Shown here one piece after another: positions 9,570 through 62,903 of a DNA stretch of 64,000 nt. Each line of letters begins with the position of its first letter. Position 1 is the first letter of the stretch. The notes below the pieces were generated by a model, which was not told the DNA's origin, ran no database searches, and was given only the letters and a program-made list of their open reading frames with translations. The stretch covers positions 1,619-65,618 of the forward strand of contig JAHZGC010000002.1 of assembly GCA_019421015.1 (NCBI GenBank), written 5' to 3'. This DNA comes from Coriobacteriaceae bacterium. Lineage in GTDB: Bacteria > Actinomycetota > Coriobacteriia > Coriobacteriales > UMGS124. A program made the translations under genes and the position numbers.

Positions 9570-9778
9570 AGCCCGTGCGCCCCCTCAAAGCAGCGGCCTG
9601 CTTTACGGGATGAGTCTACCGTTGGGTCGTGTCCGTCGCAAGCGGCCTGCTGGTCCTTGCCGGGTGTGCGTGGGTGCTCGCGGGGGTGCTGGGTGCTCGC
9701 GGGGGTGCTGGGTGCGGGCCGCTTCATGCCGGTGCCCGAAACGGCAGATGCGCCTAAGTTTTCGGCGAGCCCCGAATC

Positions 9779-9993
9779 GGCAGATAGCGCCGCGCTTTGG
9801 GGGTTCTGGATAGGCTCGCAGGTTGCCTGGGTGTCCCTGTTGAAGCGTGGTGTCTCCGGAGTTCTCTGCGCACCTGGTAAAACCACAGTTCAGGAGGTTG
9901 TTGGCAGCGAGGGTTTTCCGCTGCGGGCGAACGGGGTGCATCAGGGCCCCTTGCGGGCCTATCCAGAACCTCCTTTATGCGGAAACATCTCGG
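9779..9993. repeat. ~215-bp TIR element, copy 2
   Basis: GGCAGATAGCGCCGCGCTTTGGGGGTTCTGGATAGG (9779-9814) and CCTATCCAGAACCTCCTTTATGCGGAAACATCTCGG (9958-9993). Internal AAAACCACAGTTCAGGAGG block. Confidence 0.8.
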
Positions 9994-10136
9994 TCGAGAG
10001 TTGCTATCAAAATTAAAAAACCGTACATTGCCGCAGTCCCGTACATCCCGTAAATCCGTGGAACCCGCCGAACATCGCTGCTGTTTGGCGGGTTCCATGA
10101 GGCGTATATGCTTGCGGGTCTTGCAGTTCTCTCGTG

Positions 10137-13255: not shown

Positions 13256-13396
13256 GGCGGCCGTGGGGCTCGATGGCTTGGGGTGCGGCGAACCATAATG
13301 AAGCATTACCGAAGCAATAGTGGGCCTCTCTGCCTGTCCTGGGGCATCGGAGTCCGGCCACCCGCGACAACTTGCACTCACGTCCGACGCCAAACC

Positions 13397-13611
13397 GGCA
13401 GATAGCGCCGCGCTGTGGGGGTTCTGGATAGGCGGTCCGGGGCCGAGGGAGCCCTTCTGCTCCCAAGGTCTTCTCCGCCGCAAAGGGGCACCCAATAAAC
13501 CCGCAGGTCAGAAGGGTGTTGGCTGCGAGATTTTCTCCCCTGCGCGCACATGGGGTACATCGGACCCCTCGCGAGCCTATCCAGAACCCTCATTCTGCGG
13601 AAGCATCTCTG
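13397..13611. repeat. ~215-bp TIR element, copy 3
   Basis: GGCAGATAGCGCCGCGCTGTGGGGGTTCTGGATAGG (13397-13432) and CCTATCCAGAACCCTCATTCTGCGGAAGCATCTCTG (13576-13611). Confidence 0.8.
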
Positions 13612-13644
13612 TTTCGGGGCCCCCTCGCCTGCACCGCCTCCCTC

Positions 13645-14951: not shown

Positions 14952-15245
14952 TGGCGCCAAAGGCGGGTTCGGTAAGGGTTAGCGGATTTGGGTGGCACCG
15001 GACCCGAATTGTGTAAGGGTCAAGTCCGAAGGCTGGCGCCAAGCTCGAGTTTTGTAAGGGGAAGGGCTGGGTGCTGGCACCAAAAGCGAGTTCTGTAAGC
15101 GCGCAATCCGACTTTCCGGACGAGAGGCCCTCGAATTACTTACACAGCGCCGATTTGGTGCCATTCTCACCCACTGATTCTTACAAAACTCTAGTTCGGT
15201 GCCACCATCCCGTTGGCAAGTTTACAGAACTCGCATTCGGTGCCG
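14952..15245. repeat. Phased motif array, family 1, locus A (4 direct + 3 inverted units)
   Basis: TGGC[A/G]CC-N11-12-TGTAAG units start at 14952, 14993, 15034 and 15075. Inverted units start at 15139, 15180 and 15221. Phasing is 41 bp with a 64-bp central step. Confidence 0.9.
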
Positions 15246-19579: not shown

Positions 19580-19777
19580 GGAGACTCCTTCGGGGGAGGG
19601 CGGTGTCGTGCGGTGCTGTCTTGCGGGAGTATAGCGCGGCCTGCGGTGGCCCGTGCTCGTCGGGGTTGGGTGGCGTAGCGGGGCGCGTGCGGCATGGGAG
19701 CGCGCGTGGCATAAAACCGCGCAAATCGGGACGTTCCCGTCTGGCACGCCGTCGGCCGAAGGTGCCGGTGGCGTGCC

Positions 19778-20030
19778 GGGCACCAGGCTCGCGTTATGTA
19801 AGCCTCCGCGGCCCTGGGTGGCACCAACGGCGAGTTCTGTAAGTCCCGAAAGGAGAGAATGGCACCGAATCGGCGTTCTGTAAGTCACGGGGCGCGCATG
19901 TTGCCGGTTTTTGCCCCCCGGTCCTTACAAAACCCGCGTTCGGTGCCGCAGGAAGTCTCGCCGGTTTACACAACTCGCATTCGGTGCCAGCCCTGCCCGG
20001 GCGCCCTTACACAACGCCGGTTTAGTGCCA
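19778..20030. repeat. Phased motif array, family 1, locus B (3 direct + 3 inverted)
   Basis: Direct units start at 19778, 19819 and 19860. Inverted units start at 19924, 19965 and 20006. Same 41/64-bp geometry as locus A. Confidence 0.9.
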
Positions 20031-23736: not shown

Positions 23737-23753
23737 GCCGTTGTGGTCTTTCG

Positions 23754-24046
23754 TGGCGCCAAAGAGGGTTCTGTAAGTCCGGGACGCCCCGGGTGGCACC
23801 GAATGCTTGTTTTGTAAGTCTCGACGACCCCGGGTGGCACCAGACGCGAGCTCTGTAAGCCCGGGTAGCGGAATATGGCACCGGATCGGTGTTTTGTAAG
23901 CCCGGGTGTGCGCATAACGCCGGTTTTTGCGTGCGAGTTCTTACAAAACTTGCATCTGGTGCCAGCTTGGGCCAGCTGGCCTTACACAACGCCGATCCGG
24001 TGCCATTGGCTGCGCCGGACTTTTACCAAACCCGTATTCGGTGCCA
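23754..24046. repeat. Phased motif array, family 1, locus C (4 direct + 3 inverted)
   Basis: Direct units start at 23754, 23794, 23835 and 23876. Inverted units start at 23940, 23981 and 24022. Central step 64 bp. Confidence 0.9.
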
Positions 24047-33416: not shown

Positions 33417-33526
33417 GGGCACCTCTTCTTTGCCGGTCGGTTGTCTCCCATAATACGCCCGATTATGGCTGGCTATGGCGGTACTGCCCGGGATATCGAC
33501 GTTCTCTATGAGCGTGTTTGCGCCCT

Positions 33527-33646
33527 GTTCGCGAACGGTTCGCGCACGGCTGCCCTGTTCGCGAACGGTTCGCGCACGGACGCCCGGTTCGCGAACGGTT
33601 CGCGCACGGACGCCCGGTTCGCGAACGGTTCGCGAACGGACGCCTA
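33527..33646. repeat. 30-bp tandem repeat x4 containing palindrome GTTCGCGAAC
   Basis: Units start at 33527, 33557, 33587 and 33617. Each unit reads GTTCGCGAACGGTTCGCG[C/A]ACGG.... The last unit overlaps the PFOR stop codon. Confidence 0.9.
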
Positions 33647-36600
33647 CTCCCCATACACCCCCACCGTGCGCGAGAGCACCTGGTACTCGCGGTCGCAGTC
33701 CTTGGCGAGCTCACTCTGCAACCGGCTCGAGAGTTCGGGCTTGCGGCTGGCCAGTCGCGCATAGCGGTCCTGACCTGCAAGGAAGTCCTTCATCGAGCCG
33801 TTGGGCGCGGCGCAGTCCACGGTGAGCGGGTCCTTGCCCTGCCGGGCCAGCCGCGGGTCGAACCTGAACAGCGGCCAGTAGCCCGCCTCCACCGCCTCCT
33901 TGGACGCCCGGATCGAGGTGCCCATGCCCGCCTTGAGCCCCCAGCTGATGCACGGGCACAGCGCGATCACGATGCTCGGCCCGTCGTAGTTCTCGGCCTC
34001 GCGCAGCGCGTCGATGGCCTGCTGCATGTTGGCGCCCAGGCAGATCTGCGCCACGTACACGTAGCCGTAGGCCATCATCATGCGGCCCAGGTTCTTCTTG
34101 GGCGTGGCCTTGCCGTTGAGCGCAAAGCCGCTCACGCTGCCCAGTTGGGTGGCCTTGCTCATCTCGCCGCCGGTGTTGGAGTACCCCTCGGTGTCGAGCA
34201 CCAGCACGTTGAGGTTCTCTCCGCTGGCCAACACCTCGTCGAGGCCGCCGTAGCCGATGTCGTAGGCCCACCCGTCGCCGCCCACGGCCCAGACGCTCTT
34301 CTTGCCGAACATGCTCCCGCAGTCCAGGATCTCGCGCACCTGGGCGAGAAGCCCCCGCGACCTTGCGGCGGCCTCCGTGGAAGCGCCGTTGTCCGGAGCG
34401 CCTGCGGTTCCCGAGCTTACCGCCACTCCGCTTATGCCGTCCATTCCCGAGGTCTTCTCCGCCCCCTGCATCCAGCTGCGCAGCGCATCCTGGGCTGCCT
34501 GACCTGCGGCGTAGGCAGCGTCGGCGTCGTCGCGCACGGCGATCCACGCCTCCAGGAGCGTCTTGACCTCGGTGGGCGTCTCCGCTGCCTGGGCCACCGA
34601 GGTGGCCAGGTTCACCAGGTGCTGGCGGCGCACCTTGACCGCCTTGGCGATGCCGTAGCCGTACTCGCCGTTGTCCTCGAAGAGCGAGTTGCCCCAGGCC
34701 GGCCCGTGGCCACGGCGGTTCACGGTGTAGGGCATCGCGGGGCTGTAGGCGCCCCAGATCGAGCTGCACCCGGTGGCGTTGGCCATGATGAGCCGATCGC
34801 CGAAAAGCTGGGTGAGCAGCTTTACGTGCGGGGTCTCTCCGCAGCCGCCGCAGCAGCCCGAGAACTCGAGCAGTGGCTGCTGGAGCTGGGTGCCGGGGAT
34901 GCTGGTGGCGGGGATCAGGTCGTCTTTGATCGAGACGTTGGCCTGGGCAAACGCCAGGTTCTGCCTCTGTTCGTCGAGCTGGCTGGCCAGGGGCCGCATG
35001 ACCAGGGCCTTACCCGGCGCGGGGCAGTTGTCGGCGCACGAGCCGCACCCCACGCAGTCCTGCGGGTACACCTGGATGCGGAGGTTGAGCCCCTCGAGCC
35101 CCTTGAAGCTGGCCTTCTTGGTGGCGTAGCCGGCCGGCGCGCCCTCGAGCTCGGCATCGGTGGCCAGGTAGGGCCGGATGGCCGCATGGGGGCACACGAG
35201 CGAGCACTCGTAGCACTGCACGCACTTGGCCACGTCCCACTCCGGGATCTCAAAGGCCACGGTGCGCTTCTCGTAGGCGGCTGTGCCTGGGGGAACGATG
35301 CCGGCGGGATCGAGCTTGGACACCGGCAGCGCGTTGCCCTCGAGCCGCTCGATGGGCCAGAAGACGTCGTCCAGGTAGGCCTGGGAGGGGCCTCCGTGGG
35401 GTCCGACCGAGGGCGACGGCCCCGCTGTGGTCGCGCCACCTTGACTCTTCGCATCGGAGAAGCCCTCGTCTTCCGGGGCCTTCTCCGATGCGGTACCCCA
35501 GCTGGCGGGGTAGTCGACCTGCACGATGGCCCCGGCTGTGGCGTCGATGGCCTGGATGTTCTTGGCCACCACGTCGGACCCCTTGGAGGCGTACATCACC
35601 TGCACGTCCCGCTTGAGGGCGCTTGCCGCGGCGTCGAAGTCCATGGCGCCCGAGAGCTTGAAGAAGGCCGTCTCCATGACCATGTTGATGCGCGCACCAA
35701 GCCCCACCTGCGCCGCGATGGCCGAGGCGTCGATCACGTAGAAGCGCGCCTTCTTGGCCGCGATGGCCTGCCGCAGCGTCGCGGGCAGCTCTCGTTCGAG
35801 CTCGCCGACCGTGGTCCAGGGGGCGTTGAGCACAAAGACGCCGCCTTCCTTGAGGTGCTCGAGCATGCGGTAGCCACGCTTGACGTAGATGTCTTTGTGG
35901 CAGGCCACGTAGTCGGCGCGGTCGATGAGGTAGGGGGCATCGATGGGATCGGGGCCCAGCCGCAGGTAGGTGATCGTGAGGCCGCCCGACTTCTTGGAGT
36001 CGAACCACGAGTATTCCTGCACGTAGGCGCCGGTCTTGTCGCTCACGATCTTGGCGGCCTCCTTGCTGGCACCCACGGTGCCGTCGCTGCCGAAGCCGTA
36101 GAAGATGCACTGGGTGAGGCCGCGTCCCTCCAGCAGGTCGAGCTCCGGGCCTACCGGCAGCGACAGGTGGGTCACGTCGTCGTCGATGCCCACGGTGAAG
36201 CGCGGCTTCATGGGGGCGGCGGCCGAGGTCCCGCCGTCGCTCAGAGCGGGTTCTCGGCCGCAAGGTGCCGGGAGGTGAGGCGTACTAGATGTACGTGAGC
36301 CTTCCGGGAACGCGGCGGCCGAGGTTCCGCCACCATCCCTCATGTTGTCGAAGACGGCGCGCACCATGGCGGGGGTAAAGTCCTTCGAGCTCAGCCCATA
36401 GCGGCCGCCGATGGCCCGCACGTCGCCGCGCCCCTGGCTCATGAGCGCGCAGCATACGTCCTGGAGCAGGGGTTCTCCCTGGCTGCCGGGCTCTTTGGTG
36501 CGGTCGAGGGCGCACACCACGCGCGTGCTCGCCGGTAGGGTCGCCACAAAGCGCTCAGCGTCGAAGGGCCGGTAGAGGCGCACCTTCACGAGGCCCACCT

Positions 36601-37516: not shown

Positions 37517-37662
37517 GGCGAGAGGCACCTTCTTGGGGTCGGGGGGTACGGGCGGGCGTTTGCGTAGATGGCGCACGCGTGTTTGGGGCGGTATGTACCC
37601 GGTCGGGTTCGGGGACGTTGGGGATGCCGCCGGAGGTGCCCAAGTCTGCAGAAGCTGTGGGT

Positions 37663-37782
37663 TGGCAAGAAATTCGAGATATCAGGATGTTTTACATGCT
37701 TGGAGGGCCTCTGTCATCCTGATATCTTGCATTTTTTGCCAATGGGGCCGGAAAACTTCCTGATTTATCGCAATTCTTGCCA
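37663..37782. repeat. Phased motif array, family 2, locus F (1 direct + 2 inverted)
   Basis: TGGCAAGAAATTCGAGATATCAGGA at 37663. Inverted TCCTGA...TTGCCA units start at 37717 and 37758 (41 bp apart). Confidence 0.8.
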
Positions 37783-37860
37783 GCGGTCCTCGCCCCCCGG
37801 GTAAATCATGAAATGGAGGCGAGACCGCCGACAGCGTGCCGGGATTCCCCCAGGTCGAGC

Positions 37861-38072
37861 TGACACCAAACTGGCGTTCTGTAAGTGGAATCGACCTGTG
37901 TTGGCACCGAATACGAGTTTTGTAAGCAGGGTCGGGGGCTTATCGCCCAAAATCGAGGGCCCGGGCTTACAGAACGCCGGTTTGGTGCCACTTTCCGCTC
38001 GACGGGCTTACAAAACTCGCATCCGGTGCCAACGCGCGCCCCGCGCCCTTACAAAACTCGCATTTGGTGCCG
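37861..38072. repeat. Phased motif array, family 1, locus D (2 direct + 3 inverted)
   Basis: Direct units start at 37861 and 37902. Inverted units start at 37966, 38007 and 38048. 41/64-bp geometry. Confidence 0.9.
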
Positions 38073-38174
38073 CGAGCCACCTGTCGGCCAACCCGCCGAC
38101 CACCCACCAGCCGGCCGCCAACCATCCCACCCGGCCACCCCATCCGGCGTCCCACGCCGTCCGCCTGTGCGCTC

Positions 38175-43325: not shown

Positions 43326-44171
43326 ATGAAGACAACAACTGCGCATCGTGTGGCCGCTTTAACCGGTTCGGCGCTCATGCTGGCCGGGATGGGCGCGGGA
43401 GGGGGTTTTGCCTCTGCGGGCGAGGCCCCGGCCACCGTTTCCCAAGAGGGCGTGTTTCAGAAGGTTGCTGCCGATAAGGGCGCTGTGGCCAAGGCCCCAG
43501 CCGTCGCCAGAACGTTTGCCTACAGCCAGGGTGCGCCTGCTTCCATCGACACGATCGCCCGGGTCATGGGCACACCTCGATACGCCCGCAGCTCCACCTA
43601 TGCGGGTGCCCCGCAGAGCCTCAACGCCCTGGACTGGACCATCGAGGTGGGTGGCGCCGTAGAAAACGAGTTTGTCGCCACGGTGGGCGATCTGGTAGAG
43701 AACGGACCCATGAACATCGTCATGGGTTGCAGCTGTGCGAGCAACCCGGCCAACGGCGTGGCCTCCGCGGACACCGACGTGAGCGGTGTCATGTTTCGCT
43801 CCATCGTCGATGCGGCCAACCCTGACGCTGGGGTAAACACTGTGGTCTTCACCTCGGCGGACGGCTACGAGGTGGCGCTTCCCCTGCGCTATTTGGACCA
43901 GCGCTACTCCCTCATCGGGTTCGACGTTAACGGCCAGCCGCTGAGCGATTCCATGGGCGGCTCCAACCAGCTTTGGCTCTCGGGCACCTCGGCCAACAAC
44001 CACGCTTTGTGCGGTTGGTCGGCCCCACAATCTCCCCCTGGGTCGCGGGGCCGAGGACGCTTGCCCGCCATGGCAAGAAACCACGGAAATCAGGATGCCG
44101 GCCGGGTCTTACGGCAGGAAATCAAACTAATCAGGATGTTCGGGGGTTTACGGTGGCAGAAAATGGCATAA
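43326..44171 (+). CDS. Secreted molybdopterin-oxidoreductase-domain-like protein (Oxidored_molyb/YedY-like); 3' end uncertain
   Basis: Signal peptide MKTTTAHRVAALTGSALMLAGMGAGGGFASA. WTIEVGG...FVATVGDL...MGCSCASN...VVFTSADGYEVALPL...FDVNGQPL...GGSNQLWL pattern. The last ~45 codons run into repeat array G. Confidence 0.55.
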   Translation: MKTTTAHRVAALTGSALMLAGMGAGGGFASAGEAPATVSQEGVFQKVAADKGAVAKAPAVARTFAYSQGAPASIDTIARVMGTPRYARSSTYAGAPQSLNALDWTIEVGGAVENEFVATVGDLVENGPMNIVMGCSCASNPANGVASADTDVSGVMFRSIVDAANPDAGVNTVVFTSADGYEVALPLRYLDQRYSLIGFDVNGQPLSDSMGGSNQLWLSGTSANNHALCGWSAPQSPPGSRGRGRLPAMARNHGNQDAGRVLRQEIKLIRMFGGLRWQKMA

Positions 44172-44293
44172 AACCTCGTAAATCAGGAAATTTACCAGGC
44201 ATTTGGACTGGTCGGCTACCATCGGGTTCCTGATTTCTCATGTCTCTTGCCGTTCGGTACCTTGGGCATCCTGATTTCCCGGACTTTTTGCCA
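44071..44293. repeat. Phased motif array, family 2, locus G (3 direct + 2 inverted)
   Basis: Direct units start at 44071, 44112 and 44164. Inverted units start at 44228 and 44269. Steps are 41, 52, 64 and 41 bp. Confidence 0.85.
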
Positions 44294-44355
44294 TATGGTC
44301 TCCGCGACTCGGGTAGTATGGAGCCATCCCCCCCGTCCGTGAACTAAGCGACCGC

Positions 44356-44608
44356 TGGCACGAAACTGGAGTTATGCAAGGGGGCAGAGCGTCCACTGGT
44401 ACCGAATGCGAGTTTTGTAAGGGTGCCCGGAGCCATCTGGCACCAAATCGGAGATATGAAAGGGCTCGCGGACAAAAACCGGTATCGTGCGTGCTCCCGG
44501 ACTTACAAAACTCGCGTCTTGTGCTATCTCCGCGCCTCTTGGCTTACAGAACCCGCATTCGGTGTCACCTCCCTCCCCGGGGGCTTACACAACTCGCGTC
44601 CGGTGCCA
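44356..44608. repeat. Phased motif array, family 1, locus E (3 degenerate direct + 3 inverted)
   Basis: Direct units start at 44356, 44397 and 44438. Inverted units start at 44502, 44543 and 44584. 41/64-bp geometry. Confidence 0.85.
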
Positions 44609-44887
44609 TCCTGCGTTCCCACCGCCCCGTGTCCCCATCCCTTCCCCTCAGCGCAAGAATTAACCCCGCCTTACTCTCCATGAATGCTACACAACTCCGA
44701 TTCCATAGCACTTTTAGACGGGCCGCCCTCAGTGTCAACGCCTGGTTACACAACCCTCAAAGGCGTCTAATAAACGCAGGTCAAGGGGGCTTTTCTGACA
44801 CCTGATAACCGTGCTTAAATACGGCTTGGGGGGTTACCGAACCACAAAGCAATACGTCAGCAAGACCTTTGGAGAGAGGGGATAGTT

Positions 44888-46399
44888 ATGTCTGACATCA
44901 CCACGACCCGTCGCGCGTTTGTGGGTGGCATGGCCGCTATGGGTGGCATGGCCGCGATGGCCGCCGCCGCTGCCAAGGCCGGTATCGCTGTGGCCGACGA
45001 GGCCGCCGCTGCCGATCCCGCTACCACCTACGAGCTCGAGGACCCGAGCGAGTACTGGGGCGAGGGCGTCGTTGCCCCCCACACCACCCGCGAGTCTGCC
45101 TACGAGAACGTCCTGCCCGAGCTGGCCGACGCCTCCATGTCCGAGCTCGTCGACATGGTCCAGGATACCCTGCCCCTCGACGAGATCGAGGACGCCGTCC
45201 TGCCCGACGGCACCACCGTGCCCGCCGTGTACGTCAAGCTGCGCAACCACATCAACCGCATCGGCTCCGGCATCGGCGGCACCCCGCTGCCCAACTCCTA
45301 CGAGATGATCATGTCTCTGTGGAGCGAGGAAGACGCCCAGCACGAGATCGAGATGCCCTACAACAAGTACTTCGACGCCAACGACTACCACTGGCTGAGC
45401 GGCCGTCCCGTCGAGGAGTGCACCGAGATCTGCGACGATCTGGCCTCCCGCGGCATGATCATGCGCGCCAATCACTCCGGCCACATCGTGTACCACCTGC
45501 TGCCCTACATCAACGGCTTCTGGGAGTTCAACGAGCTGCGCGCCTACTTCGAGAACGGCGGCGACCCCGACGGCGTGGCCGAGGCTCCCGAGGCCTACGC
45601 CGCCGCTGGCGCCTTTGACGCCCTGGGCATCGGCGGCGCCGAGCCCGGCTCGTCCTTCGAGGCCCTCGTGCCGCTGTTCCACACCTACCCCGTGAGCGCC
45701 GACGTCGTGGAGGAGGACGAGCTCGCCCCCTACATGGACTGGAAGGCCATCATCGAGGCCAACGAGAAGATCACCGTCTCCCCCTGCCAGTGCCGCCTCA
45801 TGTGGAAGTCCTTCGGCGCCCCCATGTGCCACGGCGACGGCGACCACCCCTTCGAGACCTGCCTGTCCTTCGGTGAGCTCGCCGAGTACTTCGACGAGAT
45901 CGGCATCGGCCGCTACATCAGCCAGGACGAGGCCATCGCCATGGTCGAGAAGTGCATGGACGCCGGCATGGTGCCCGAGTCCCTCAGCATGAAGGAAGTC
46001 GACATCATGTGCATGTGCCACGGCGACTGCTGCGGCAACCTGAGCGGCTACAAGGCCATGGGCGGCCAGGCCCACGCCAACGTGAACGTGAACGCCTACC
46101 TGCTCAAGTACGATCCCGAGAAGTGCATCAGCTGCGGTGCCTGCGCCGAGCGCTGCCCCATGGAGGCCATCAGCCTCAACGAGGACGGCATCTGCCTGCA
46201 CAACAACGCCTGCGTGCGTTGCGGCCAGTGCGTCACCGTGTGCCCGGCCGACGCCCGCATCCTCAGCTACCGCGGCGACTACCCCGAGCTCGGCCGCGAC
46301 TACGTCGAGGCCGTCGAGATGCTGTCCGCCGAGCGTATGCGCCGCGGCATGATCACCGACTTCGCCGGCGGCGAGGTCCAGGCCCCGGCCGAGGCGTAA
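44888..46399 (+). CDS. Tat-exported 4Fe-4S dicluster protein (paralog 3)
   Basis: Tat signal TRRAFVGGMAAMGG. SPCQCR and CMCHGDCC clusters. CISCGACAERCP and CVRCGQCVTVCP motifs. GGAGAGAGGGG SD. Confidence 0.8.
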   Translation: MSDITTTRRAFVGGMAAMGGMAAMAAAAAKAGIAVADEAAAADPATTYELEDPSEYWGEGVVAPHTTRESAYENVLPELADASMSELVDMVQDTLPLDEIEDAVLPDGTTVPAVYVKLRNHINRIGSGIGGTPLPNSYEMIMSLWSEEDAQHEIEMPYNKYFDANDYHWLSGRPVEECTEICDDLASRGMIMRANHSGHIVYHLLPYINGFWEFNELRAYFENGGDPDGVAEAPEAYAAAGAFDALGIGGAEPGSSFEALVPLFHTYPVSADVVEEDELAPYMDWKAIIEANEKITVSPCQCRLMWKSFGAPMCHGDGDHPFETCLSFGELAEYFDEIGIGRYISQDEAIAMVEKCMDAGMVPESLSMKEVDIMCMCHGDCCGNLSGYKAMGGQAHANVNVNAYLLKYDPEKCISCGACAERCPMEAISLNEDGICLHNNACVRCGQCVTVCPADARILSYRGDYPELGRDYVEAVEMLSAERMRRGMITDFAGGEVQAPAEA

Positions 46400-56818: not shown

Positions 56819-57027
56819 TGCCAGAAAAAGCAGCTTTATTTGGCAAGAGGGCTCTTCGGGAAAGGCCATGCCAGATAAACCTACTTTATTTGGTAGGCCA
56901 TCTGCCTGCGGAAATAATGAAAAACAGCTGGTAGATGGACCTGTTTTTGTTTGCCAAATAAACCAGCTTTGTTTGGCGGCACTCCCTTGGAGAAGGGCTT
57001 CTGCCAGAAAAGCCTACTTTATTTGGC
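56819..57027. repeat. Phased motif array, family 5, locus J (four quasi-palindromic 26-27-bp units)
   Basis: TGCCAGAAAAAGCAGCTTTATTTGGCA-type units start at 56819, 56869, 56952 and 57002 (50-bp steps within pairs). Confidence 0.8.
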
Positions 57028-57206
57028 AGTCTCCACCTCGCTCGGCAGTCCCAGCCCCGCTTGGCCGCCCCCGGTCTGCCTTCCACCCGCCTCCCCCCAC
57101 CGCGAGTTCCTCCCCCGTGCCCTCCACGTCGCTCGGGTACTATACCTTGCACAACTACCGTACCTCCGGCCCCGCGCTTCTATCCTCCCGAAAGGTTTCC
57201 GCCCCC

Positions 57207-59865: not shown

Positions 59866-60092
59866 CCGAGATGCTTCCGCAGAAAGGGGGTTCTGGATAG
59901 GCGCAATCTTTTTTGTTCGAGTTTGCGCTCGGCGGTTGCTTCAAGGGCTAGCGGAGAAATACCTGGTAGATGGGCTGTTTTTATAAGCAGGTACCCACCA
60001 ACTCCAAGGTTTTCTCCCCTAGGGCTGCTACCGGGGGCGTTTGGGCGGTCGAGTTGCCTATCCAGAACCCTGATTATGCGGCGGTATCTGCC
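59866..60092. repeat. ~215-bp TIR element, copy 4 (variant interior)
   Basis: CCGAGATGCTTCCGCAGAAAGGGGGTTCTGGATAGG (59866-59901) and CCTATCCAGAACCCTGATTATGCGGCGGTATCTGCC (60057-60092). Confidence 0.8.
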
Positions 60093-61327: not shown

Positions 61328-61543
61328 CCGAGATGCCTCCGCATAATCAAGGTTCTGGATAGGCGGAGGTGGGCGCCGTGCGCTACCCGATGGCCCGCCT
61401 TCGCTCTCGTGCGATTTCGGCCCCAGCAAAATCGCAGTTCAGGAGGGTCATTGCCTGCGGGACCTCCCTGCGTTGCGGGCATCCGGGGACATCGGGGCGC
61501 TCGCGGGCCTATCCAGAACCCTCATTCCGCGGCGCTATCTGCC
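61328..61543. repeat. ~215-bp TIR element, copy 5
   Basis: CCGAGATGCCTCCGCATAATCAAGGTTCTGGATAGG (61328-61363) and CCTATCCAGAACCCTCATTCCGCGGCGCTATCTGCC (61508-61543). Confidence 0.8.
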
Positions 61544-62691: not shown

Positions 62692-62903
62692 CCGAGATGC
62701 TTCCGCGGAATTGGGGTTCTGGATAGGCGGGTGGGGGTGCTTTGCGCGCCATGGCGGGTCATCTTTGCCTCGCGGGTCCAGGTCTAGTAAAACCGCAGTT
62801 CAGGAGGGTCATTGCCTGGGGGCCTCCCTGTGCTGCGGGCTCGTGGGGACATCGGGGCGCTCGCGGGCCTATCCAGAACCCTCATTCCGCGGCGCTATCT
62901 CCC
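62692..62903. repeat. ~215-bp TIR element, copy 6
   Basis: CCGAGATGCTTCCGCGGAATTGGGGTTCTGGATAGG (62692-62727) and CCTATCCAGAACCCTCATTCCGCGGCGCTATCTCCC (62868-62903). The right half of the interior is nearly identical to copy 5. Confidence 0.8.

Follow-up and report, generated by a model that had tools for sequence, protein, structure and literature searches.

A phased array of opposed repeat units in a gut Coriobacteriales genome: a copy of a putative protein-binding interspersed element

Introduction

In a stretch of 64,000 nucleotides from a Coriobacteriaceae bacterium (assembly GCA_019421015.1, contig JAHZGC010000002.1, positions 1,619 to 65,618; hereafter the window), short units recur at fixed distances, with a block of direct units facing a block of inverted ones. 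One such array, designated locus G, runs into the 3′ end of an open reading frame (ORF) and raises the question of what kind of element is built in this way. Locus G is best explained, at a probability of about one half, as a copy of a lineage-specific, non-coding, non-autonomous, interspersed mosaic repeat element whose units are putative protein-binding sites. All positions refer to the window and are collected in Table 1; contigs and loci outside the window carry L numbers.

Architecture of Locus G and the Spacing Rule

A first-pass annotation, made from the sequence, had placed three direct units of locus G at 44071, 44112, and 44164 and two inverted units at 44228 and 44269, with steps of 41, 52, 64, and 41 bp. 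All five starts were recovered, with both the unit pattern and the position weight matrix (PWM). The direct starts are counted from the T of TGGCA, the corresponding 26-nt units beginning at 44070, 44111, and 44163, and the steps hold for the 25-nt core, becoming 41, 52, 65, and 41 for the 26-nt unit. The direct unit reads ATGGCAaGAAAyC-n5-AATCAGGA, and the CCTGAT ascribed to the inverted form is present in both inverted units. In the window, a degenerate family-2 unit pattern was found to match nine times, with 0.02 matches expected, and the core AAATCAGGA five times, with 0.13 expected; neither count was reached by any shuffle. Locus G is confirmed as a real, non-chance phased array. Its outer arms are 83% complementary over 30 nt and constitute an inverted repeat with the termini TGGCA...TGCCA, and the array termini, as read from the sequence, are 5′-TG...CA-3′. 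The GC-rich motif to its right (GGTCTCCGCGACTCGGGTA) has a counterpart on the right-hand side of the locus D family-2 array (GGTCCTCGCCCCCCGGGTA) and possibly belongs to the element.

The overlap of the array with the 3′ end of ORF 43326-44171, also described earlier, is real, with the ORF stopping inside the third unit, but it is an incidental read-through of no coding meaning. The ORF is a decaying remnant: its Oxidored_molyb match ends at residue 216 of 281, its GC content at third codon positions (GC3) is 0.74 (0.67 in the tail) as against 0.9 or more in the neighboring genes, and in another strain its frame is broken by a deletion of 95 bp.

Locus G belongs to the second of two unit families. 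The consensus of family 2, derived from 31 units in six independent arrays, is aTGGCAagAAatCnnaGaAATCAGGA, and the family-1 unit is TGGCACCrAAynsGnGTTnTGTAAG; the two families have the 5′ half TGGCAnnnAA in common and differ in the 3′ half, which is GTTnTGTAAG in family 1 and AAATCAGGA in family 2. The arrays are built from 25-nt units and 16-nt spacers, the latter fixed in length and variable in sequence, in blocks oriented +++-- or +++---, giving a regular 41-bp period that is not a multiple of 3. Among seven independent family-1 arrays, every same-orientation step is 41 bp (27/27) and every centre step 64 bp (7/7). Among the six family-2 arrays, the same-orientation step is 41 bp in 16 of 19 cases (42 bp in one and 52 bp in two), and the centre steps are 54, 55, 63, 64, 65, and 65 bp, that is, 63–65 bp in four arrays and 54–55 bp in two. 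The earlier proposal that family 2 is a second dialect under the 41/64 rule of family 1 thus holds, with two refinements besides the non-coding nature of the ORF overlap. First, the 52-bp step of locus G is 41 + 11, since a half-unit, TGGCAGAAAA, lies in phase at 44153 and is followed by the full unit at 44164; the half-unit and the 52-bp step recur in a paralogous array (L187:3407-3620), and the step is therefore a subfamily trait. Second, two family-2 arrays have a centre of 54–55 bp, which is 10 bp, or about one helical turn, shorter than that of locus G. Each departure (52 = 41 + 11; 54 = 64 − 10) thus amounts to about one helical turn, and these few events would match the prediction of a face-of-helix constraint.

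Conservation of Units and Paralogy of Whole Arrays

Alignment of five family-1 arrays showed the units and the register to be conserved, and the spacers, centre, and flanks not to be. Nearly invariant positions make up 18 of the 25 in family 1 (30 units), and in family 2, 14 of the 26 positions are conserved at 90% or more (31 units), including TGGCA, AA, and AATCAGGA. Similarity among units is no greater within an array than between arrays (0.75 within versus 0.77 between in the family-1 comparison, and 0.74 versus 0.71 in the family-2 comparison), which points to an independent constraint on each unit. Substitutions between the window and the strain contig L022 were observed at 11 of 108 conserved unit positions of family 1 (10.2%) and 22 of 103 spacer positions (21.4%), and at 2 of 70 (2.9%) and 9 of 95 (9.5%), respectively, in family 2; for both families together, the values are 13/178 (7.3%) for conserved positions and 31/198 (15.7%) for spacers (Fisher p = 0.015).

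Strain loci were recovered by exact-protein look-up in independent metagenome assemblies. Locus G and the neighboring family-1 array E are present in L022, L024, L028, and L029 in identical phase and without internal indels; most other metagenome contigs end ~200 bp upstream of the gene for an iron–sulfur (Fe-S) protein, at the array edge, as expected because the arrays are a multi-copy repeat. At locus D, strain L183 carries four direct and two inverted family-2 units, compared with one and two in the window, the difference being a clean in-register indel of 123 bp (3 × 41) in otherwise almost identical DNA. Therefore, the arrays grow and shrink by whole units.

Contig L187 comes from the same species (99.2% identity to the window over 18 kb), and its match to the window breaks off exactly at the stop codon of a flavin reductase gene (window 23680; 23680/23681 versus L187:3933/3934). 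Beyond this breakpoint, L187 carries a terminator hairpin, a stand-alone family-2 array (steps 41, 52, 54, and 41), a LysR gene, a reductase gene, and a family-1 array (steps 41, 41, 64, 41, and 41), whereas the window carries the family-1 array C and different genes. The segment L187:3407-3620 aligns with locus G end to end at ~65–70%, including a spacer motif, GTCGGCCGGG, and the half-unit. Judged from this alignment, whole arrays are paralogous copies, and because the 52-bp half-unit feature recurs, the arrays appear to spread as whole ~230-bp elements. By contrast, the family-1 arrays have only their units and phase in common.

Distribution

No unit of either family was detected in ~270 kb from 19 relatives, nor any 41-bp periodicity in those inspected. 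The PFOR-linked contigs L184 and L185, which keep the local gene order, likewise contain no unit and no 41-bp periodicity; compared with these contigs, gene order is interrupted where arrays D and E lie. A pattern scan of viral contigs gave isolated chance matches only, mostly in low-GC contigs, and a distant blastn comparison with plasmid and phage records gave no match; on these grounds, a phage or plasmid origin was rejected. Across the metagenome collection, a 26-base two-unit family-1 pattern found no match, and a 21-base family-2 pattern found two chance matches and three genuine loci, L200, L201, and L203; given a GC3 of 0.88 in the coding part of L200, these are possibly further loci from this species or from a sister species. 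In the literature, no description of such arrays was found for Eggerthella or Coriobacteriia. The repeat family is lineage-specific, its host being an uncultured gut Coriobacteriia bacterium. Overall, locus G is ordinary within its own family, and the family itself is an undescribed variant of interspersed bacterial repeats.

A Putative Mechanism and the Points Against It

Each array is a platform of asymmetric ~25-bp recognition units, each with two conserved blocks (TGGCA..AA and AATCAGGA). The units follow one another every 41 bp (about four helical turns) in two opposed blocks of two to four, with ~64 bp (or ~54 bp) at the centre. In the proposed mechanism, a sequence-specific DNA-binding protein supplied in trans would occupy each unit with one subunit, and the fixed phase would place the bound subunits on one face of the helix, enabling them to cooperate. 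In layout, the two inverted blocks resemble the left and the right end of a Mu/Tn7/IS21-type transposon, each with several sites, joined back to back. In the genome, the element behaves like REP sequences and bacterial interspersed mosaic elements (BIMEs): the ~230-bp module appears to spread as a whole into intergenic DNA, putatively moved by a transposase or recombinase acting in trans, whole units are gained and lost by unequal recombination, and the element is kept recognizable only at its unit positions and phase.

Several observations weigh against this interpretation. No binding protein or cognate transposase was identified in the window or in the strain contigs recovered, and the viral contigs, the metagenome scans, and the plasmid and phage records yielded no autonomous element with the same ends. 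The sole transposase seen in the species belongs to an IS3-family insertion sequence (IS), which inserts into other repeat families and does not carry them. Among nine arrays, the only candidate target-site duplication is a 5-bp CGAGC repeat abutting array D (37856–37860 and 38073–38077); the other eight showed none above chance, although old insertions could have lost theirs. No strain with a simple empty site was found, and the arrays could move passively with the variable segments in which they lie. The relatives L001–L019 do not keep the gene order upstream of the Fe-S gene, and in L184 and L185 the order around PFOR is kept but another gene occupies the position of array D. A clean boundary of insertion was not obtained from these comparisons. 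Most copies differ from each other to saturation in their spacers, and any spread of the arrays is therefore old. Finally, few independent events lie behind the helical-turn argument.

Alternative Explanations

The same protein-binding design could instead serve the host, in that the arrays would bind a chromosomal protein (nucleoid-associated, insulator-like, or roadblock-type), be selected by the host, and separate independently regulated gene modules, multiplying mainly by duplication along with these modules and not by transposition of their own. Such a role would fit the bracketing of modules in the window (A / reductase-LuxR / B / LuxR-reductase / C), the order in L187 (family-1 array / reductase-LysR / family-2 array), and the position of a GNAT gene between a family-2 and a family-1 array in L201. 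The constraint on the units, the lack of target-site duplications and of a transposase in the array-flank test and window scans, and the absence of families 1 and 2 from all of the roughly six gaps with divergent promoters in the window would likewise be accounted for. However, close relatives with like modules and gene order are array-free, so that a general host function would be a very recent invention; four unrelated unit families coexist, as is typical of selfish repeats; and the arrays also adjoin decaying gene remnants. A host boundary element is, on balance, unlikely, though it deserves serious consideration.

A bolder proposal, to which only a small likelihood is assigned, is that the arrays are assembly platforms for a protein polymerizing in 41-bp register from both sides to the centre, and that they delimit, and possibly mobilize or exchange, reductase-plus-regulator modules. 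Such modules are much expanded in Eggerthellaceae-like gut bacteria. If this proposal is true, the arrays would represent a new cassette-boundary or recombination system, not junk repeats.

A long, imperfect, REPIN-like hairpin of RNA or single-stranded DNA (ssDNA), formed by pairing of direct with inverted units, would be an explanation of a different kind, with the array acting as a stabilizer or terminator at mRNA 3′ ends or as a substrate of a Y1/HUH transposase. Most arrays do lie downstream of at least one gene, the outer arms of locus G are largely complementary, and the genomic behavior parallels that of REP (repetitive extragenic palindrome) and REPIN sequences (PMC3116915, PMC2817692). 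Furthermore, the predicted RNA fold of locus G (−95.1 kcal/mol) is more stable than that of shuffles (−74.6 kcal/mol; z = −4.4), but the same would be true of any inverted repeat; the family-1 array E has no such advantage over shuffles, even when folded as ssDNA (z = −0.4). The single units are not palindromic, with self-complementarities of the consensus of 16% (family 1) and 24% (family 2) compared with 80% for a REP-like control, and the minimum free energy of the family-1 and family-2 consensus units is not below that of shuffles. There is no sign of hairpin covariation: the similarity of symmetric direct/inverted partners does not exceed that of non-partners (0.754 versus 0.761), and mirrored spacers are complementary at the level of chance (0.26). 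In addition, no Rfam family matched anywhere in the window at gathering thresholds, and no promoter-like or terminator-like sites were found in 43900–44950. Nor does a hairpin call for a strict 41-bp period in which the spacer sequence is free. Altogether, a hairpin function is improbable. A related candidate, a CsrA-type sponge RNA suggested by the CAGGAUG motifs of family 2, was rejected, as the inverted copies would sequester the motifs and an RNA role is unsupported. A sigma-54-type promoter (TGGCAC-N5-TTGC) was also rejected, its spacing and second element not fitting the units. Actinobacteria are not known to have sigma-54.

Comparably improbable is that the arrays are recombination sites of a gene-module cassette system, that is, att-like or end-like sites at which a site-specific recombinase or transposase would capture, excise, or exchange the flanked reductase/regulator modules and foreign genes. 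This would explain why L187 and the window diverge fully from the reductase stop codon on, each with a different array and different genes, why a GNAT gene with a low GC3 (0.59) lies between two arrays in L201, and why arrays D and E coincide with gene-order breaks relative to L184/L185. Yet the breakpoint is at the stop codon itself and not inside an array, with array C following only after about 70 bp and the family-2 array of L187 after about 310 bp; no recombinase was found nearby in the window scans; the arrays also flank housekeeping genes such as that for PFOR; and the sample is small.

Finally, a degenerate CRISPR-like array, plasmid-type iterons, chance, or an assembly artefact can be given hardly any weight, since the conserved repeats with fixed-length, variable-sequence spacers (25 + 16 nt) bear only a superficial likeness to CRISPR, with half of each array inverted, the repeats degenerate, the spacers only 16 nt long (CRISPR arrays have direct repeats only and spacers of about 30–40 nt), and many small arrays in 64 kb without cas genes or domains in the window scans, while shuffles give about 0 matches and the phase of the arrays is the same to the base in independent assemblies of many samples, which already refutes chance and artefact.

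Surroundings of Locus G and Other Repeats of the Window

The window encodes LuxR-type regulators, PFOR, and reductases of the flavin and Fe-S kinds that carry Tat signals, a gene content typical of Eggerthellaceae-like Coriobacteriia. The best relatives are uncultured human-gut Coriobacteriales known from metagenome-assembled genomes, with 82–85% identity in the Fe-S protein and 81–83% in PFOR; beyond these, PFOR identity is ~65% in Adlercreutzia and other Eggerthellaceae. The region 44657..44887 forms the right limit of the variable, array-bearing stretch. In both the window and L001, it includes a partly palindromic sequence, ATGAATGCTACACA...TTCCATAGCAC. A divergent regulator gene, TetR-like by eye from its translation alone, lies upstream in L001; in the window, the interval from the arrays to the Fe-S gene has no such gene call. 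The non-coding and pseudogene segment 42709–44656 diverges by 7–37% from L022, whereas the flanking genes diverge by 0.2–0.8%. This divergence exceeds what relaxed constraint alone would give and could reflect imported DNA, local hypermutation, or gene conversion.

At least five family-1 and three family-2 sites occur in the window, all intergenic, and at least four unit families together occupy about a quarter of its intergenic regions. The arrays are found in unrelated intergenic contexts, including between convergent genes, and in strain-variable segments. Array E lies 61 bp to the right of locus G, and the family-2 units at 37662–37783 and 19706 each lie 40–80 bp to the left of a family-1 array. 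In family 1, the 39-bp centre contains an asymmetric motif, GCRCATnnYGCCGGTTTTTGC, in either orientation (19893–19915, 23909–23932, and, in reverse, 44468–44490), which looks like a degenerate, out-of-phase unit. Within L201:138-1161, the GNAT acetyltransferase gene (170 aa; foreign-looking in its codon usage) is separated from the arrays on its two sides by margins of only ~30–60 bp.

Table 1. Features of locus G, its surroundings, and the other arrays of families 1 and 2 (window coordinates).
Feature	Coordinates	Strand	Description
Locus G, whole array, family 2	44070..44294	.	3 direct + 2 inverted units; ~225 bp, non-coding
Unit G1	44070..44095	+	ATGGCAAGAAACCACGGAAATCAGGA; 39.9 bits
Unit G2	44111..44136	+	ACGGCAGGAAATCAAACTAATCAGGA; 37.1 bits
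Half-unit, in phase (44112 + 41)	44153..44162	+	TGGCAGAAAA; weak PWM match; homologue in L187
Unit G3	44163..44188	+	ATGGCATAAAACCTCGTAAATCAGGA; includes the TAA stop of the read-through ORF; 40.3 bits
Centre between the opposed blocks	44189..44227	.	39 bp; not conserved among arrays
Unit G4, inverted	44228..44253	-	ACGGCAAGAGACATGAGAAATCAGGA on the - strand; 34.4 bits
Unit G5, inverted	44269..44294	-	ATGGCAAAAAGTCCGGGAAATCAGGA on the - strand; 41.5 bits
GC-rich flank motif	44297..44315	+	GGTCTCCGCGACTCGGGTA; from alignment with the right flank of locus D
Decayed ORF with molybdopterin-oxidoreductase domain	43326..44171	+	Runs on into the array; does not belong to the element
Promoter-proximal region of the Fe-S gene	44657..44887	+	Conserved with the closest relative, L001, and between strains
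Family-1 array, locus E	44356..44608	.	Direct 44356, 44397, 44438; inverted 44502, 44543, 44584; steps 41, 41, 64, 41, 41
Family-2 array, locus D	37662..37783	.	1 direct + 2 inverted units (+,-,-); 4 + 2 in strain L183
Family-1 array D	37861..38072	.	2 + 3 units; 5-bp CGAGC abuts both ends
Solitary family-2-like unit	19706..19731	+	46 bp left of family-1 array B
Family-1 array B	19778..20030	.	3 + 3 units
Family-1 array A	14952..15245	.	4 + 3 units
Family-1 array C	23753..24046	.	3 + 3 units and a fourth direct unit with an indel; between convergent genes

Two further families were observed. The third is a ~245-bp element with an inverted pair of 35-nt units at its limits, ~154 bp apart (944–1189, 9758–10002, 13376–13620, 59866–60092, 61328–61543, and 62692–62903); its boundary units read GGCAGATAGCGCCGC...GGGTTCTGGATAGGC on one side and CGAGATGCTTCCGC...GGTTCTGGATAGGC on the other, its orientation is definable and found both ways round, and a 76%-identical copy is present in the metagenome locus L203. 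The fourth consists of REP-like, near-palindromic 27-bp units, TGCCAGAWAAA-N5-TTTATTTGGCA (81% self-complementary), at 56819–57029 (steps 50, 83, and 50) and L020:10131-10385 (steps 38–39), and the first 20 positions of its unit resemble the family-1 unit. Just downstream of the PFOR stop codon, a 30-bp tandem repeat, CGCCCkGTTCGCGAACGGTTCGCGCACGGA, occurs five times (33491–33670).

In L020, an rve transposase lies beside TGGCA-type repeats with a 38–39-bp period, which are those of family 4. The idea that the units of families 1 and 2 are the ends of this transposon was rejected. A comparison of two insertions gave its inverted repeats (CGrGGGTGCGGCAG...), which bear no relation to the units, and the transposon is an ordinary member of the IS3 family. 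The element (L020:10374-11759 and L186:123-1683; left inverted repeat CGAGGGTGCGGCAGGAAGTTGGACGC) encodes a 496-aa transposase, is absent from the window, and is inserted within a family-4 unit in L020 and, in L186, within one of family 3. REP-targeting IS elements have been described (PMC1525189), and by analogy the two insertions suggest that the IS3-family element targets these repeats as IS1397-type elements target REPs.

Implications

If locus G is a copy of a putative protein-binding interspersed element, a little-studied lineage of gut Coriobacteriia has a dense intragenomic repeat population of its own, with a design (non-palindromic units, opposed blocks, an exact four-turn period, and free spacers) that has not been described for REP/BIME or for MITEs (miniature inverted-repeat transposable elements). 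The strict phase and unit-only conservation predict a specific DNA-binding protein. In practical terms, the arrays break short-read assemblies of the organism, most metagenome contigs ending there, and whole-unit copy-number changes could serve as strain markers. The location of arrays at the edges of strain-variable reductase/regulator modules also bears on the shuffling of metabolically important gene families.

Comparison with Known Systems

Neisserial dRS3/NIME and pneumococcal BOX elements are modular intergenic arrays with a short module, variable copy number, and mutually inverted terminal modules. They differ from the present arrays in module sizes and order, and are not known to have a strict helical-phase period with free spacers.

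The REP, BIME, and REPIN sequences of Proteobacteria are regularly spaced repetitive extragenic palindromes mobilized by RAYT Y1 transposases (PMC2817692, PMC3333891, PMC3116915). The present arrays resemble them in their short conserved units, mosaic arrays, and fixed spacing, in being strictly intergenic, of high density and copy number, and species-specific in sequence (none in about 300 kb from relatives), with several families per genome, in the variation of unit number between strains, and in the use of such repeats as IS insertion targets, here by the IS3-family element in family-3 and family-4 units. Unlike REP sequences, however, the family-1 and family-2 units are non-palindromic (16–24% self-complementary), a direct block is followed by an inverted block instead of an alternation of orientations, and the linkers are fixed in length but free in sequence; moreover, no RAYT gene was seen here and no Y1_Tnp domain was detected in the scanned ORFs of the window, and the host belongs to a Coriobacteriia lineage.

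The anatomy is more reminiscent of the ends of Mu, Tn7 and CRISPR-associated transposons (CAST), Tn552, Tn402/Tn5053, and IS21-type elements and of the MITEs derived from them, in general design. Such ends carry asymmetric ~22–26-bp sites, direct within an end and inverted between ends, in unequal numbers on the two sides (here 3 + 2, 4 + 3, and 4 + 2), with 5′-TG...CA-3′ termini, as in the multi-site ends of DDE-type elements, and the derived MITEs are small, non-coding, and multi-copy, with terminal inverted repeats, as is locus G. The arrays differ from the known ends in being perfectly periodic (41 bp) and, as seen among the family-1 arrays, in having copies alike in their units and not between them; in addition, no cognate transposase was found here, and a 5-bp flanking duplication is present at only one of nine arrays.

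The arrays belong to neither the REP/BIME nor the transposon-end class and lack defining properties of both; they are filed in neither because their units are non-palindromic and non-alternating, with no cognate transposase found and no consistent target duplication. They are closest to REP/BIME/REPIN sequences in genomic behavior and, in anatomy, closest to the multi-site ends of Mu/Tn7/IS21-type transposons placed back to back.

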